Part shown: positions 1-4,529 of the stretch, one piece after another
Layout of the letters: the number at the start of each line of letters is the position of its first letter
How positions within the stretch are numbered: the stretch's first letter is position 1
Origin: a virus
Taxonomy: Duplodnaviria > Heunggongvirae > Uroviricota > Caudoviricetes
Virus record (IMG/VR): IMGVR_UViG_3300029060_000152
Coordinates: 1 to 4,529 of that record
Reading direction: 5' to 3' (one strand)
DNA: 4,529 nt
Translations under genes and position numbers: made by a program
Notes under the pieces: generated by a model
The model's input: only the letters and a program-made list of their open reading frames with translations
Told to the model about the DNA's origin: nothing
Databases searched by the model: none

Positions 1-10
1 AAAGACTCAT
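1..10 (-). CDS. 5' end (3 codons, M-S-L) of the next leftward gene, continuing beyond the window; product unknown (by position, a second replication gene such as a helicase loader)
   Basis: Minus strand reads GGGGG-TAA-TC-ATG-AGT-CTT: ATG at 10..8 lies 2 nt after the TAA stop (15..13) of the upstream replication gene, a typical coupled junction. Only 10 nt are visible, so identity is inferred from operon position. Confidence 0.3.
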
Positions 11-12
11 GA

Positions 13-954
13 TTACCCCCTGAATCCTGCCGGGATCTGGCTGTAGTCCACGTTGTCGTAACTGGCTTTGAAGTACGGGTCTTCGCGTTTTTCGGTGTAC
101 GTGCTTACGGACGGCGATAAGCGCAGGGAAAGCTCATCCCATTTTTCCCGCAGCTTCGACGGGCTGAGCACGTTACGGCACCAGAACGGATCGCGGCTGA
201 CGCGGCTGTACATCTCGCAGATTTGTTTGTGAGTACGACCATCCTGCACACACATCAGGCGAATTTCGTTTGCCCAGGCTGTCCAGTTCGGTTCTTTGGG
301 ACGAACCACCTCGCCGTCACATTCGGCAGCCTGCTCGTACAGGGCGATGATTTTTTTCCAGAGCCACTGTGCGCAGGTCAAATCATCCTGCGTCCCCCAC
401 TGGCGCTTTTTAGGGCTGAATACAACCGCATCAGGATGGCGAGTTAAAAAATCCTGTTCAGCCGTCTGCGTGTCCGGTTGCGAAGCGTCCGGACGAGAAG
501 GTTTTTTATCTGACGGATCATGTTTTGATTTTACTGACGGATCCCCGCCAGATTCTGACGGGTGAAAACCCGCTTTTTTGCCAGATTTCGACGCATCAAA
601 TTTTGACGGGTCAGATTTTGATGCGTCAGATTTTGACGGGTCAGAATCTGACAGTTGAGAAAATGCCGCAGCCTGAAGCTTCGCAACGTTAAGCTGATAA
701 ACATTCGACGCATTGCGGTTACCCTGGCGACGCGCCTTACGCGTTAACCAGCCTTCTGCTTCCAGCCGTGCGATAGCCGTTCTGACTGTACTCATCCCCG
801 CGCCAATCTGGCGGGCAATGGTTTCAATCGATGGCCAGCACACACCTTCGTCATTACTGAAATCAGCCAGGCGGGCCATAATTGCCACGCTGGATAATTT
901 CATGCCTGACGCTGCGCAACCATCCCATACATAGCCGGTTAATTTAGTGCTCAT
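13..954 (-). CDS. Phage replication initiation protein (replisome organizer, O-like role): N-terminal winged-HTH domain, low-complexity Ser/Asp/Pro/Lys linker, C-terminal domain of unknown fold
   Basis: 313-aa ORF with ATG at 954..952 preceded by GAGG (minus strand AGAGGTCGGTCATG). The N-terminal 90 aa (…LSSVAIMARLADFSNDEGVCWPSIETIARQIGAGMSTVRTAIARLEAEGWL…) matches from memory the HTH_36-type domain of phage and plasmid replication initiators. The linker (SDSDPSKSDASKSDPSKFDASKS) is encoded by the iteron array. Last gene of the cro-CII operon, as O is in lambda. Confidence 0.85.
   Translation of the reverse strand: MSTKLTGYVWDGCAASGMKLSSVAIMARLADFSNDEGVCWPSIETIARQIGAGMSTVRTAIARLEAEGWLTRKARRQGNRNASNVYQLNVAKLQAAAFSQLSDSDPSKSDASKSDPSKFDASKSGKKAGFHPSESGGDPSVKSKHDPSDKKPSRPDASQPDTQTAEQDFLTRHPDAVVFSPKKRQWGTQDDLTCAQWLWKKIIALYEQAAECDGEVVRPKEPNWTAWANEIRLMCVQDGRTHKQICEMYSRVSRDPFWCRNVLSPSKLREKWDELSLRLSPSVSTYTEKREDPYFKASYDNVDYSQIPAGFRG
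507..656. repeat. Iteron-like direct repeat array (putative phage origin of replication) inside the replication-initiator gene
   Basis: Five head-to-tail 15-bp units on the + strand: 582..596 cagatttcgacgcat, 597..611 caaattttgacgggt, 612..626 cagattttgatgcgt, 627..641 cagattttgacgggt, 642..656 cagaatctgacagtt. A sixth copy at 549..563 (cagattctgacgggt) and further CTGACGG cores at 509..515 and 534..540. Same layout as lambda ori within the O linker-coding region. Confidence 0.6.
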
Positions 955-1302
955 GACCGACCTCTATTTCCCTGAATTTACGACGAAACTGTTCGAGCGG
1001 ACTGAAGCACTCATGCTCATAGCCTTCGCGGAGGTAGATAACCCGTTGTGTTTCCGGTTCCCAACGAATGACTCTGACGGGCACTCCGTAGTGATCTTTG
1101 AACCAGCGGTTAACTTGTCGCAAAGGACTGTCTCCTTCTGCCGGTTGAAATCCCCCACAGCCCACTCTGCAAAGCTGTGGGTTACAATTTCCCTGTCACC
1201 TGGTACATTCACTGCATAGCAATATTCCACCTTCGCTTTTCCACCCGGTACAGGAAGCGCAATCAGTTGCGAGCGACGGTAGTGTGTTGTTAAACTGTTC
1301 AT
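944..1302 (-). CDS. Small hypothetical protein with a reading-frame switch: N-terminal part in frame A (from ATG 1302), C-terminal part in frame B (ending TAA 946..944); frameshift, indel or assembly error suspected
   Basis: Frame A starts at ATG 1302..1300, overlapping the upstream TGA (ATGA junction), and is protein-like through …HSFAEWAVG, then degrades into an S/N/K-rich tail to 964. Frame B is open only from 1195, has no SD before its first possible start (GTG 1165), yet reads protein-like (…[47 protein letters not shown]…) and ends 11 nt inside the replication gene start. Both frames are open across 964..1195; a G5 run (1152..1156 as ccccc on +) is a plausible indel site. Confidence 0.45.
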
Positions 1303-1862
1303 GCGTTAGTTTCTCCACAACCAGAAGCAATCGACGCCACGACGCCCGGAGCTGCACACTCGCGGGCGTCATTACTTTCTGAAATGCAAAAAATTTTGTA
1401 GACAAGTGCTGCATGCTCCTGCAGCTTCGAAATTGAGAGATACAGCTCGTCGTTAATTGCTGTCTTCTCATGCGGTTCCACTACANNNNNNNNNNNNNNN
1501 NNNNNTGAACGAATCTGTTTTGAATAACTGCCGATCTGTTCAATGACTTCCAGCAGACGCTGGTTAATATCGGCGTTGTCCACATCCTCGACGTCAGGAA
1601 GAGACACAAAGACGCCATTTGCAGACTGCGCCACAGCATCAGCAATGAAATGAGTGCCACCAGCACGCTGTAAAACCATTGCCCATCCCAGCGGGAAAAT
1701 CTGATCGCCATCTGCACGAAGGCGGTTGAATAAAGCGTTTTCTGTTACATCGAGCCAGTCAGCCGCTTCAGCGTAACCACCCGGCAACGCCGCGATAGTT
1801 TTTCTGACAGCTTTCACGTACCACTCAGGTTGTTTTTCCACTTTCCAATGATGCTTACCCAC
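1299..1862 (-). CDS. CII-like phage regulatory protein (resembles the phage 186 CII / Phage_CP76 family from memory); interrupted by an assembly gap, so length and frame continuity are unverified
   Basis: GTG start at 1862..1860 sits 6 nt downstream of a strong SD AGGAGG (+ strand cctcct 1869..1874) and overlaps the cro-like stop (minus strand GTGGGTAA). Second gene of the rightward-type operon, where cII sits in lambdoid phages. The N-terminal segment (…[25 protein letters not shown]…FIADAVAQ…) recalls 186 CII-type proteins. The 20-N gap falls inside the ORF, and 20 is not a multiple of 3, so the apparent in-frame continuity is arbitrary. Confidence 0.55.
1486..1505. other. Assembly gap (run of 20 N)
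   Basis: Twenty consecutive n characters at 1486..1505; the true size of the missing sequence is unknown. Confidence 0.98.
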
Positions 1863-2115
1863 GGCTTACCTCCTGTTCCTGTGGTTTAAACCCATTCTGG
1901 TTTTGGCTAGATTGAAAACGTGCCGGATAAAGAATCTGCATTTCGCTGATTTCACCCTTAAAAAAATTGGCCAGACGTTCTGCAAGATCGATAGATGGAA
2001 TTTGTTCCAGTCTTTCAATACGACTCAGCGTCGCTGGATTGACCTGAACGCCCGCAGCAACATGCTGCAAAGTAAATCCGTGCGCCTTACGCACATTCCG
2101 TAATGGTGATTGCAT
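1855..2115 (-). CDS. cro: Cro-like HTH (XRE-family) transcriptional regulator, first gene of the operon divergent from the repressor
   Basis: 86-aa ORF with ATG at 2115..2113, preceded by SD GGAGG (+ strand cctcc 2120..2124). HTH signature …GFTLQHVAAGVQVNPATLSRIERLEQIPSIDLAERLANFF…. Sits divergent from the CI-like gene across a 97-bp operator-rich spacer. The symbol is a functional analogy, not a sequence identity claim. Confidence 0.8.
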   Translation of the reverse strand: MQSPLRNVRKAHGFTLQHVAAGVQVNPATLSRIERLEQIPSIDLAERLANFFKGEISEMQILYPARFQSSQNQNGFKPQEQEVSRG

Positions 2116-2129
2116 ATAACCTCCACATA

Positions 2130-2212
2130 TTGCGTGATGAGCATATTATTTCACGCAAATATTTTGCGCAAGTTGATTTGCTTAACGCGCAATAAAGAAA
2201 TGTAATAAACGC
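2130..2212. promoter_or_regulatory. OR-like operator and divergent promoter region between the cro-like and cI-like genes
   Basis: TTGCG/CGCAA half-sites: TTGCGTGA 2130..2137 is the inverted repeat of TCACGCAA 2151..2158; palindrome TTGCGCAA 2164..2171; 15-bp site TTGCTTAACGCGCAA 2178..2192. Leftward promoter candidate (minus strand): -35 TTGCGC (+ 2171..2166), 17-bp spacer, -10 TAATAT (+ 2148..2143). Rightward promoter candidate: -35 TTGCTT 2178..2183, 17-bp spacer, -10 TGTAAT 2201..2206, placing the transcript start at or next to the cI ATG (2213). Confidence 0.65.
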
Positions 2213-2905
2213 ATGAACATAGGAAATCGAGTCAGACAACTTCGCCAGGCGAAGAACATGAAAATCGCCGATCTCGCTGAAGCAATAGGAGTGGATGCGG
2301 CGAATATCTCGCGCCTCGAAACAGGTAAGCAGAAACAATTCACTGAACAAGCCCTGAGTAATATTGCCAGGAGCTTAGATGTTGATATTGCTGATCTCTT
2401 TACCTCAGACCTCAAAAGTAATACTGTATGTAAAAACAGTATTAGTGAGGATGTTGCGCAGGTGAAGGATGTATTCCGTATTGAAATGCTGGATGTCAGT
2501 GCCAGTGCGGGAAATGGCCTTATCCAGGGCGGTGATGTCATTGATGTGATTCATGCCATTGAATACAGAACTGATAATGCTGTATCGATGTTTGGTGGAC
2601 GACCAGCAAATCACATTAAAGTTATCAACGTTCGTGGGGACAGTATGTGTCCAACCATTGAGCCAGGAGATCTCATCTTCGTTGATATCAGTATCAATCA
2701 GTTTGATGGGGATGGTATATATGTATTTGGTTTTGATGATAAAATTTACGTCAAACGACTGCAAATGATACCTGATAAACTGCTGGTAATTTCTGATAAT
2801 CAGATTTACCGCGAATGGGGAATTACCAGCGAAAACGAACACCGGTTTATGGTCTTTGGAAAGGTCTTAATCAGTCAGTCACAGACCCTTAAGCGACACA
2901 ATTAA
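2213..2905 (+). CDS. cI: CI-like prophage repressor: N-terminal HTH_XRE DNA-binding domain plus C-terminal LexA/S24-family autopeptidase domain (SOS-inducible)
   Basis: 230-aa ORF. HTH: …VRQLRQAKNMKIADLAEAIGVDAANISRLETGK…. S24 domain with Ser in VRGDSMCPTIEPGDLIFV (Ser144) and Lys in YVKRL (Lys181), the same 37-residue Ser-Lys spacing as LexA, and a candidate Ala-Gly cleavage site at Ala99-Gly100 (DVSASAGNG). No SD upstream of the ATG. Followed by an intrinsic terminator. Confidence 0.9.
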   Translation: MNIGNRVRQLRQAKNMKIADLAEAIGVDAANISRLETGKQKQFTEQALSNIARSLDVDIADLFTSDLKSNTVCKNSISEDVAQVKDVFRIEMLDVSASAGNGLIQGGDVIDVIHAIEYRTDNAVSMFGGRPANHIKVINVRGDSMCPTIEPGDLIFVDISINQFDGDGIYVFGFDDKIYVKRLQMIPDKLLVISDNQIYREWGITSENEHRFMVFGKVLISQSQTLKRHN

Positions 2906-2926
2906 CCCCCTACCTCAACATCAATT

Positions 2927-2950
2927 AGCCACCAGAAGGTGGCTTTTCAT
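2927..2950 (+). terminator. Rho-independent terminator downstream of the cI-like gene
   Basis: Perfect 7-bp stem AGCCACC (2927..2933) / GGTGGCT (2938..2944) with 4-nt loop AGAA, followed by TTTT (2944..2947, the first T shared with the stem), 22 nt after the cI stop codon. Confidence 0.65.
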
Positions 2951-2960
2951 TACCCACCAA

Positions 2961-3014
2961 ATTGCTTATCTCGCAATAAAACACTTGCATAATGCGCAAC
3001 TTCATTTTATCTTT
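2961..3014 (+). promoter_or_regulatory. OL-like operator pair with a candidate rightward early promoter
   Basis: Two 15-bp sites matching the OR copy: TTGCTTATCTCGCAA 2962..2976 and TTGCATAATGCGCAA 2985..2999 (both TTGC-N6-CGCAA). Promoter hexamers are ambiguous: CATAAT at 2988..2993 is a possible -10, or -35 TTGCAT 2986..2991 with -10 TATCTT 3008..3013 (16-bp spacer). Position matches OL/PL in lambdoid phages. Confidence 0.55.
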
Positions 3015-3423
3015 CTCTCCAGACCTACAAACAAGGTACTAACAAAATTTGGTTGTAACACGGCGTATGGCACATGCGTCGTTAGCGGTCTGGGGACGTT
3101 AAAGGGGACAATCCACTCCTTGCTCGGGCAAACAAACCAGGTAGCCGGAATGTGCAAGTCAATGAGGATGCTGATAAGACGCCTAACCAGCGTGGCGATC
3201 CGGTTTGACGCCTGGGAAGAGACCAGGGTGCAACGATGAGGGCATTTATGGAACCGCGACAAAGTGTGGTGCCGTAACTGGCTAAGTGCTCTCAGCGTTG
3301 TGGTAATCCGCGAAATGGCGCGGCGGTAAGTATGGCGGGGTTACTCTTTCCCCGTTGAGGACACCGGATTGTCAGGTTGACCATACGCCTGAGTGACAAC
3401 CCCACCACAACAGCCACTGCTTT

Positions 3424-3470
3424 GGCGGTACCAGTTTGTACACTTGCTTCCGGCTGGTACCGCTCTTTTT
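3424..3470 (+). terminator. Strong hairpin plus T-tract: intrinsic terminator or antitermination-controlled element in the early-left leader; the tail resembles a boxA sequence
   Basis: Perfect 10-bp stem GCGGTACCAG (3425..3434) / CTGGTACCGC (3454..3463) with a 19-nt loop, followed by TCTTTTT (3464..3470). The sequence CGCTCTTTTTACAA (3461..3474) resembles boxA (GCTCTTTAACAA type) as recalled from memory. Confidence 0.5.
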
Positions 3471-3474
3471 ACAA

Positions 3475-3557
3475 AACAGAGAAGAGCATCACCGGACGAC
3501 GGGCTCATAACCCAATCCATCCGGGCGGCAGTCACCGCAGGTGTTCTTCTCTGTTTT
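3475..3557. other. Long imperfect inverted repeat (about 16-bp stem in RNA) of unknown function in the leader of the rightward genes
   Basis: AACAGAGAAGA (3475..3485) is the exact reverse complement of TCTTCTCTGTT (3545..3555). Pairing extends through 3486..3490 / 3540..3544 with two G-U wobbles, enclosing about 49 nt. Flanked by T-rich sequence on both sides. Confidence 0.4.
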
Positions 3558-3607
3558 GTGGAGAAACCAACCGACCTTGCAGGGTCGATATGATGAGGAG
3601 CAGCAAA

Positions 3608-3970
3608 ATGGCTAGCGAACGCAGTACTGATGTGCAGGCATTTATCGGGGAGCTGGACGGCGGCGTATTTGAAACCAAAATCGGCGCTGTTCTCAGTGAA
3701 GTCGCTTCCGGTGTGATGAACACGAAAACCAAAGGTAAGGTCTCGCTCAACCTGGAAATCGAACCATTTGATGAGAACCGTGTGAAAATCAAACACAAAC
3801 TCTCATATGTTCGCCCGACTAACCGCGGGAAAATTTCCGAAGAAGACACCACCGAAACGCCGATGTATGTCAATCGCGGTGGTCGCCTGACTATTCTGCA
3901 GGAAGACCAGGGACAATTACTGACTCTTGCCGGTGAACCTGACGGAAAACTCCGCGCAGCAGGTCATTAA
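3608..3970 (+). CDS. Hypothetical phage early protein, about 120 aa, function unknown (possibly YfdP-like of CPS-53-type prophages; unverified memory)
   Basis: ATG at 3608 is preceded by SD AGGAG (3596..3600) with a 7-nt spacer; in-frame alternative starts are ATG 3590 and 3593. Stop TAA 3968..3970. The ORF-track start at 3377 is a TTG and gives an implausible N-terminal extension. Confidence 0.7.
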   Translation: MASERSTDVQAFIGELDGGVFETKIGAVLSEVASGVMNTKTKGKVSLNLEIEPFDENRVKIKHKLSYVRPTNRGKISEEDTTETPMYVNRGGRLTILQEDQGQLLTLAGEPDGKLRAAGH

Positions 3971-4035
3971 TATCGTTCTTAATTAACCGATTATTTATCT
4001 CATCACTGAATATCTTTATATAGTGAGGACTTATT

Positions 4036-4529
4036 ATGTCTCAGAACTTAGACGCAACCGCAATTAATCAAATCCATGCCCTTATTTCTGCTCAGGGTGT
4101 TAATGAAATTATCAGTAAGATTGGTGCCGATGCTGTGGCATTGCCTGAGAATTTCCGCATTCATGATCTGGAGAAATTTAATTTAAATCGCTTCCGTTTC
4201 CGTGGTGCGCTTTCCACTGCCAGCATCGATGACTTTACCCGTTATTCTAAAGATCTTGCAGATGAAGGCACCCGCTGCTTTATCGATGCCGATAATATGC
4301 GTGCCGTCAGTGTGATTAACCTGGGTACTATTGATGAACCAGGTCACGCAGATAACACCGCCACTCTCAAACTGAAAAAGACAGCACCGTTCTCTGCTCT
4401 GTTGTCTGTTAATGGCGAGCGTAACTCCCAGAAGTCACTGGCAGAATGGATTGAAGACTGGGCCGACTACCTTGTGGGCTTTGATGCTAATGGTGACGCT
4501 ATTCAGGCAACAAAAGCGGCTGCGGCAGT
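4036..4529 (+). CDS. Conserved phage protein of unknown function, 3'-truncated by the window end (resembles the DUF2303 / YfdQ-like family from memory)
   Basis: ATG at 4036 preceded by SD GAGGA (4025..4029) with a 6-nt spacer. Open to the window end (164 codons: [98 protein letters not shown]…). Absent from the ORF track only because it has no stop in the window. Confidence 0.8.

Follow-up and report, generated by a model that had tools for sequence, protein, structure and literature searches.

In the immunity regions of lambda, 434 and P22, the repressor gene cI and the gene cro are divergent and separated by a spacer of about 100 bp, and the CI repressor combines a helix-turn-helix (HTH) domain with an S24 autopeptidase that carries an Ala-Gly site and a Ser/Lys pair. 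Dyad operators overlap the rightward (PR), repressor-maintenance (PRM) and leftward (PL) promoters; those of the spacer form the right operator region (OR), a second cluster beyond cI, with neighbouring sites 22-24 bp apart, forms the left one (OL), and the operator sequence changes with the immunity module. Operators are 17 bp long in lambda and 14 bp in 434, lambda CI activates PRM from about -42, and the lambda PRM transcript is leaderless, starting at the A of the cI ATG. In phage 933W, OL has two sites and OR three. The 933W repressor is reported (PMC3317979) not to bind cooperatively to adjacent sites and to show unusual relative affinities. The present analysis concerns a 4529-bp stretch of DNA (the window; positions 1 to 4,529 of IMG/VR record IMGVR_UViG_3300029060_000152) which, by its sequence, is the immunity region of an Escherichia coli lambdoid prophage of the mEp460/Stx2a_1447/SfII type, and in particular a set of TTGC-N7-GCA(A/T) dyads found on both sides of its cI gene. 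These dyads are very probably operators bound by dimers of the prophage's own CI, in a switch of the lambdoid kind.

Much of this layout recurs in the window. The cro and cI genes are divergent across a 97-bp spacer, in which dyads overlap PR and PRM as far as their predicted hexamers locate these promoters; a second cluster (OL2 and OL1, 2962-2999) lies beyond the repressor gene and overlaps the predicted leftward promoter. Beyond cro follow CII-like and O-like genes, and beyond cI a terminator and the early-left operon (yfdP, yfdQ). The window differs from lambda in its half-site (TTGC), its 7-bp centre and its total operator length of 15 bp, as well as in its OR, where two full sites at a distance of 48 bp stand in place of the three tandem ones of lambda; OL has two sites. 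The rex genes are absent from the locus, so that OL lies only ~800 bp from OR, and an N open reading frame (ORF) was not found among the ORFs of the window. N is reported to be likewise lacking in SfII, SfV and SfIV. The resemblance to 933W lies in being a lambdoid switch of Shiga toxin (Stx)-type phages that departs from lambda in operator occupancy, but the 933W repressor and operator sequences are unrelated to those of the window.

The architecture and the gene labels of this region are already known, since the public records of PhiR40_1, SfII, mEp460 and Stx2a_1447 annotate Cro and also label cI, whereas the operator specificity is apparently uncharacterised. The first-pass annotation had proposed that the immunity specificity be compared with known lambdoid types. 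Among lambda, 434, P22, 21, HK022, 933W, N15 and others, no characterised type is known to match in repressor DNA-binding domain and operator consensus. The CI protein resembles a studied repressor only in its C-terminal part (HK022 CI, 51% over residues 81-228). The SfIV and SfII papers mention only the existence of a switch and give homologues of N, cII and cIII as missing. A statement in PMC12315714 that the specificity of the LLS repressor is unknown does not apply here, the LLS repressor being unrelated.

Three near-identical operator-like sites flanking the repressor gene had been claimed in the first-pass annotation, and they stand: the pattern TTGCNNNNNNCGCAA is matched exactly at OR site C, OL2 and OL1 (Table 1), each time on the plus strand, and nowhere else in the window. 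Only 0.09 such matches are expected, and none of 200 dinucleotide shuffles reaches three. With one mismatch allowed, OR site A joins the list. To avoid circularity, a position weight matrix was built from 28 distinct sites of relatives only, the window and near-identical copies being left out. With this matrix, the four window sites score between 15.5 and 20.9, the fifth-best 15-mer of the window scores 9.3, and the 95th percentile of the shuffle maxima is 12.3. By exact enumeration, sites scoring 15.5 or more are expected 0.013 times per window and 0.12 times per 42 kb; a chance origin of the sites is ruled out by the shuffles and these matrix statistics. When the scan is extended to the complete genome of PhiR40_1, a lambda-like siphovirus of 42 kb that is 99.9% identical to the window over 1800-3650, the top four matches are the same four sites and the fifth scores 12.1. 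The original pattern has one further exact match in that genome, inside rha, with a GC-rich centre and a matrix score of 10.0, and the motif thus does not occur at similar frequency elsewhere in PhiR40_1. From its information content, it is best written as a symmetric 15-bp dyad, TTGC-N7-GCA(A/T), with a weaker G/C preference just inside each arm.

Positional conservation was followed in 13 non-identical loci with cI 66-100% identical to that of the window, from eight genera (Escherichia, Shigella, Citrobacter, Salmonella, Klebsiella, Pseudescherichia, Buttiauxella and Trabulsiella). These include loci from phage records (SfII, Stx2a_1447, Salmonella phage 118970_sal3 and Klebsiella phage Kp4878-1) and loci from a genome scan (Shigella, two Citrobacter species and C. 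amalonaticus, Pseudescherichia, K. spallanzanii, Buttiauxella and Trabulsiella). The cro-cI spacer is near-constant in length and aligns essentially gap-free, with one extra base in a single locus, L017: sites A and C begin 83 and 35 bp upstream of the cI ATG in 12 loci, the distances in L017 being 84 and 36 bp, while the DNA around the sites diverges. Across 12 aligned sequences, the invariant columns of OR are TTGC (2130-2133), GCAT (2141-2144), TTA (2146-2148), the core TTGCGCAAGT, TTGC (2178-2181), CGCAA (2188-2192) and TGTAAT (2201-2206), with free variation in the N7 centres of both OR sites and in the stretch 2149-2163, while the half-sites are kept. Downstream of cI, 11 loci keep a hairpin followed by a T-run, a TTGC...GCA pair 22-24 bp apart and the sequence tTAtctT, which lies exactly 17 bp after the TTGC of the second OL site. 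The half-site pairs that had been placed at 2130..2171 from the letters of the window fare unequally in this alignment. One of them resolves into the full fourth site, site A (TTGCG-N6-GCAT), and 2164-2173 is invariant, but CGCAA at 2154-2158 is lost in the SfII, Salmonella and Klebsiella relatives. The same relatives lack the 8-bp-arm palindrome TTGCGTGA/TCACGCAA, which was therefore rejected as a conserved feature.

The motif changes when the immunity module changes. In cdtI and Ayreon, flanks with ~98% identity to the window enclose a different cI/cro pair, and palindromes of the TGTAC../ATACAT.. type stand at the corresponding places of OR and OL. LLS has the same yfdP/yfdQ backbone with an unrelated repressor and ACTAAGT-type palindromes, and in Turner, whose cI is 44% identical, GGTTGT/ACAACC repeats take the place of the TTGC dyads. 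The operator is in this sense specific to the immunity module. It also varies together with a segment of CI, AN(I/V)SR(L/V)ETGKQK, located inside the Pfam HTH match, which is conserved in 10 relatives that share the motif and differs in Turner and cdtI. We take this segment to be the recognition helix, and its tracking of the motif argues that the sites would be read by the HTH of CI, and not by a host factor or the CII-like neighbour.

The PR, PRM and PL assignments proposed here were derived from conservation and geometry. For PR, the predicted -35 is TTGCGC (2171-2166, minus strand), followed by a 17-bp spacer and a -10 at 2148-2143, with a start near 2136, ~20 nt upstream of the cro ATG. 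Site A overlaps the predicted start and the final 2 bp of this -10. Its TTGC and GCAT are invariant, the GCAT end in 13/13 loci, and every locus has T instead of A as the outer base of the site, which apparently reflects the second role of this base as position 5 of the -10 hexamer. The core TTGCGCAAGT contains the predicted PR -35 and two overlapping half-sites and is not part of a conserved full 15-bp site: 15-mers ending or starting at the core score at most 0.7 in the window, and three relatives have a one-mismatch site starting 56 bp before the cI ATG. For PRM, the predicted -35 (TTGCTT) is the left half of site C, which spans -35 to -21 of this promoter. The predicted -10 lies 6 nt from the cI ATG in 12/13 loci and 7 nt from it in L017, and cI lacks a Shine-Dalgarno sequence, which together point to a transcript start at the A of the ATG (2213) and to a cI mRNA that is probably leaderless. 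Relative to this start, the centres of A and C fall at -76 and -28, and a putative weak site at the core would be at -49; position ~-42, from which lambda CI acts, is not occupied by any of them. An alternative PRM start ~8 bp upstream, which would give the lambda geometry, was rejected, as there is no conserved -10 between CGCAA and ATGTAAT. Also rejected was the only OR promoter that the scan called, TCCACA-16-TATTAT (2122-2149): this promoter is not conserved, and its -35 is complementary to the cro Shine-Dalgarno sequence.

The whole OR (2128-2194) is an imperfect palindrome with 32-nt arms, 72% complementary and centred on 2161, in which site A mirrors site C. A further palindrome, GTGCGCCTTACGCAC, is found at 2080-2094 within cro codons 8-12; its matrix score of 9.3 is not significant by itself. 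Seven diverged relatives have a site with zero or one mismatch in the same codons (TTGCGNAARTCGCAT on the cro strand), starting 133-134 bp upstream of the cI ATG. In those whose cro codons were read, this site appears as TTG CGN AAR TCG CAT, with the Leu codon TTG fixed and a neighbouring Leu codon varying. The 2080-2094 palindrome may act as an additional weak operator, located downstream of where PR is predicted to start.

On the other side of cI, the gene ends in a predicted intrinsic terminator whose hairpin and T-run are kept in 11 relatives with differing stem sequences. The predicted PL -35 (TTGCAT) coincides with the left half of OL1, and in 10 relatives OL1 is accompanied by a homologue of OL2 at a distance of 22-24 bp. 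The PL assignment gains independent support from two metagenomic phages that share the operator type (L028 and L058), in which the leader RNA described below starts 7-8 nt after the PL -10 hexamer. An alternative -10, CATAAT (2988-2993), would need a 20-bp spacer and reads CATATC in SfII, and was discarded.

Table 1. Features of the window, with positions, strand and the basis on which each was placed.
Feature	Position	Strand	Basis or remark
O-like replication gene	13-954	minus	
Small ORF	964-1302	minus	
CII-like gene, Phage_CP76/YmfL family (ymfL)	1299-1862	minus	
cro, 86-amino-acid HTH_3 protein, first in the rightward operon	1855-2115	minus	ORF; Pfam HTH_3, E 5.8e-10
OR site A, TTGCGTGATGAGCAT, full operator	2130-2144	.	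one-mismatch match; matrix score 15.5; positional conservation
Predicted PR -10, TAATAT (TAAYAT in relatives)	2143-2148	minus	predicted; GCATnTTA columns invariant in the 12-sequence footprint
Invariant core, TTGCGCAAGT	2164-2173	.	invariant in 12/12 aligned sequences; 2149-2163 variable
OR site C, TTGCTTAACGCGCAA, full operator	2178-2192	.	exact match; matrix score 17.4; no mismatches in 13/13 loci
Predicted PRM -10, TGTAAT	2201-2206	plus	hexamer invariant; 17-bp spacer from TTGCTT
cI repressor, 230 amino acids, N-terminal Cro/C1-type HTH and C-terminal S24 autopeptidase	2213-2905	plus	Pfam
Intrinsic terminator of the cI transcript, GCCACC-AGAA-GGTGGC then TTTT	2927-2950	plus	terminator scan; -12.3 kcal/mol, z -4.7
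OL2, TTGCTTATCTCGCAA, upstream of the PL -35	2962-2976	.	exact match; matrix score 16.9
OL1, TTGCATAATGCGCAA	2985-2999	.	exact match; best matrix score, 20.9; TTGC/GCAA invariant in 11 aligned sequences
Predicted PL -10, TATCTT, 17 bp after TTGCAT	3008-3013	plus	conserved as tTAtctT at a fixed distance from OL1
Conserved structured RNA, ~245 nt (core 3060-3228, ~170 nt)	3060-3303	plus	covariation; covariance model
Terminator-like hairpin, 13-bp stem then UCUUUUU, upstream of yfdP	3424-3470	plus	-21.2 kcal/mol, z -3.5
yfdP, followed by the start of yfdQ/DUF2303; early-left operon beyond cI	3608-3970		

We do not doubt that the dyads are operators. The CI/Cro switch with OR and OL that the first-pass annotation had recognised finds support in the gene layout, the positions of the sites, their fixed spacing in 13 loci and their replacement together with the immunity module; what it does not find is an OR of three tandem full sites with a PRM-activating middle one, as there are two full sites 48 bp apart and the core. 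The further claim, that sites overlap the -35 and -10 elements of divergent promoters, agrees with geometry and conservation, although the promoter hexamers are weak. In all three predicted promoters, the -35 hexamer itself is a TTGC half-site. Occupation of site A would cover the -10 and start of PR and block cro and the rightward early genes, that of site C would cover the -35 and spacer of PRM and limit cI transcription (through negative autoregulation or shut-off by Cro), and that of OL1 would cover the -35 and spacer of PL and block the leftward early operon. The same dyads would probably be recognised by Cro, by analogy with the known switches. As for release, the CI protein matches Peptidase_S24 (5.8e-19) and HTH_26/HTH_3 (1e-10 to 1e-11) in Pfam, its motifs GDSM (Ser144) and VKRL (Lys181) align to the active-site motifs of UmuD, and Ala99-Gly100, Ser144 and Lys181 are invariant in 12 relatives, so that SOS-dependent self-cleavage is the expected route of induction: DNA damage would lead to RecA-stimulated cleavage of CI, freeing the operators and inducing the prophage. 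We infer which protein would act at which site, as well as cooperativity or OR-OL looping over ~800 bp, and bistability.

Several observations weigh against this reading. The consensus promoter scan called none of PR, PRM and PL, the hexamers of which match sigma-70 at 7-8/12 positions. CI and Cro have no detectable similarity to each other, and their recognition of shared sites is an assumption. There is no close solved structure of CI or Cro in the PDB, the best matches being UmuD, SinR and a designed 434 variant at E ~1e-4 to 1e-3 (for CI, UmuD and SinR at E ~1e-4). The six site strings had no match in the searchable literature, which also yielded no account of these operators, with the genome papers of SfV (2002) and e14 (2004) outside that search. 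As OR has no conserved full middle site, neither the cooperative filling of OR1 and OR2 nor the activation of PRM from OR2 can be simply transferred from lambda. Finally, the OR site closest to the consensus occupies the promoter of cI, an odd arrangement for a maintenance promoter if autoregulation is anything but purely negative.

These last two points lead to the alternative that survives best, in which the dyads are operators but follow a logic other than that of lambda: cI would be purely negatively autoregulated, with no activating OR2 and with the strongest OR site on PRM, and stable lysogeny would come from OR-OL looping (~800 bp), from the CII-like protein or from the candidate weak site at 2080-2094. 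The variable stretch 2149-2163, where no 15-mer scores above 0.7, is in keeping with this proposal, as are the span of site C over -35 to -21 of the predicted PRM, the overall palindromy of OR and the cro-internal site of the seven diverged relatives with its fixed Leu TTG. On the other hand, the core may act as a weak site filled cooperatively from site C (21 bp centre to centre) or from site A, the promoter assignments are predictions, and the 2080-2094 site of the window itself scores within the chance range. On balance, this alternative is judged possible but rather doubtful.

A different explanation, that the repeats are shared TTGC -35-type elements of three related promoters in which the second half of the dyad is incidental, starts from the fact that the predicted -35 hexamers of PRM, PL and PR all begin with TTGC, so that the original motif is partly -35-like sequence. 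The distal GCA(A/T), however, equals TTGC in conservation (positions 2-4 and 12-14 carry 1.79 bits per column), even though it falls in the promoter spacer, a region in which sigma-70 does not favour particular bases. Moreover, site A lies at the PR start and is not a -35, OL2 is upstream of PL, and heteroimmune relatives have promoters at the same places with other palindromes, all of which makes this explanation very improbable. Equally little weight is given to binding by the CII-like activator (YmfL, Phage_CP76) or a host factor instead of CI and Cro: the CII-like gene adjoins cro and the sites have a superficial TTGC likeness to those of lambda CII, which recognises TTGC-N6-TTGC, but the repeats are inverted rather than direct, they stand at PR, PRM and PL and not at a promoter of the repressor-establishment (PRE) type reading back through cro, and in cdtI and Ayreon the cII-side DNA is ~98% identical to the window while cI/cro and the palindromes are replaced, which means that the motif follows cI/cro. 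We know of no E. coli factor with a TTGC-N7-GCAA consensus.

The window was further described by its ORFs and a Pfam domain search of their translations. Over 1800-3650 its identity is 96-99% with mEp460 and with two Stx2a-converting phages (1447 and WGPS2), and 91% with Shigella phage SfII; most of this stretch is present in more than 900 complete E. coli genomes. A run of 20 masked bases (N) occupies 1486-1505, inside ymfL. Within the O-like replication gene, iteron-like direct and inverted repeats (CAGATTTTGACGGGT and similar, with 15-bp spacing) at 505-656 are probably the replication origin, and an Rfam match to mir-5880 at 579-653 is an artefact of these repeats. Between cI and yfdP, a stretch of ~700 bp has no convincing ORF.

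This last stretch includes a PL leader of 600 nt, without an N gene, that is a mosaic of three conserved non-coding modules. The first of them is the structured RNA of Table 1, which is part of the operon under the control of the operators and not of the operators themselves. Its core consists of four helices and a pseudoknot: P1 is a hairpin (3060-3082), P2 encloses a variable hairpin, the loop UCACC of the P4 hairpin pairs with GGUGU to form the pseudoknot, and P5 is a hairpin with a GAAGAGA loop. A long helix ending in GTTGTGG follows. A structure drawn by hand for 41 sequences has 96.5% of its cells paired, compared with 31-51% in controls with slid partners; both members of the pair vary in 11 cases, and the strand is set by the G-U pairs. 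With the covariance model, the window scores 142 bits, the 42-kb phage contains a single copy, and a copy is also detected in the PL leader of the Klebsiella relative. An exact scan detected the invariant 19-mer GGTAGCCGGAATGTGCAAG in at least 120 viral contigs, and this 19-mer had no match in the searchable literature. Rfam 15 contains no family matching the window RNA or four other representatives, and ARAGORN finds no tRNA in the leader. The RNA is present in 1376/5426 complete E. coli genomes (25%), with no annotated feature among the 40 matches listed. It is not confined to lambdoid leaders: in epsilon15-like phages (phiV10, SPN1S) it lies directly upstream of a tRNA-Arg gene, and in P1 and P7 between a tRNA gene and ban. 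In P7, a near-threshold Rfam match to the sRNA STnc100 (43 bits, gathering score 47) was noted at 562-677 of the locus L019, upstream of terB/tciA. The pawZ element of K-12 CPS-53, considered as a relative, is a tRNA fragment and unrelated.

By analogy with HK022, whose put RNA acts in cis and binds the beta' zinc-binding domain of RNA polymerase so that terminators are read through, the leader RNA may be a put-like antiterminator, which is offered as a lead and not as a result. It starts ~40 nt after the predicted PL start of an N-less lambdoid prophage and precedes the terminator-like hairpin, a location like that of HK022 putL and of the annotated putL-like RNA of HK639, also at the start of a PL transcript without N. 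The same two strands, ACGGCG...ATGCGTCG, form P1 in the window and stem I of these RNAs, and each of the three has a loop of the GGA(A/T)GA type further along. Against this, put RNA is 73 nt long with two stem-loops (PMC9378689), whereas the window RNA combines a core of 170 nt, made up of four helices and a pseudoknot, with the long 3' helix, and only its first hairpin is alignable. A search of HK022, HK639 and LLS with the covariance model gives no match at E up to 10, and the occurrence of the window-type RNA beside tRNA genes and upstream of ban is a further difference from put. The terminator-like hairpin and a second hairpin of 98 nt (3468-3565; -49 kcal/mol, z -6.9), which stands before yfdP and is shared with SfV, ST64B and LLS, lie between the RNA and yfdP, and this would fit a cis-acting antiterminator.

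The module at 3297-3411 (~115 nt) is closed by GTTGTGG and CCACAAC and is 89% identical to DNA in other Stx2a prophages. It folds into a three-hairpin, cloverleaf-like shape with a z of only -1.1. ARAGORN finds no tRNA there; in the epsilon15-like phages, a genuine tRNA-Arg gene starts at the same GTGG.

Taken jointly, the switch may run without a lambda-type OR2, with two strong sites and the TTGCGCAA core, and the leader RNA may represent a class of phage RNA not described before, perhaps a put-like RNA of larger size that would modify RNA polymerase; this combined proposal is tentative, and considered nearly but not quite as probable as its opposite. The immunity type is found in Stx2a-converting phages (Stx2a_1447, WGPS2), in the serotype-converting phage SfII and in mEp460. 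With the operator and the map of its sites, immunity groups can be predicted from sequence, which shows which co-resident prophages share a repressor, and the map helps to design reporter and induction experiments for Stx phages. The two-site OR provides a natural test of whether positive autoregulation of the OR2 type is needed for stable lysogeny. Finally, should the leader RNA prove to be a put-like antiterminator, it would account for the read-through of early terminators in this large group of N-less lambdoid phages.

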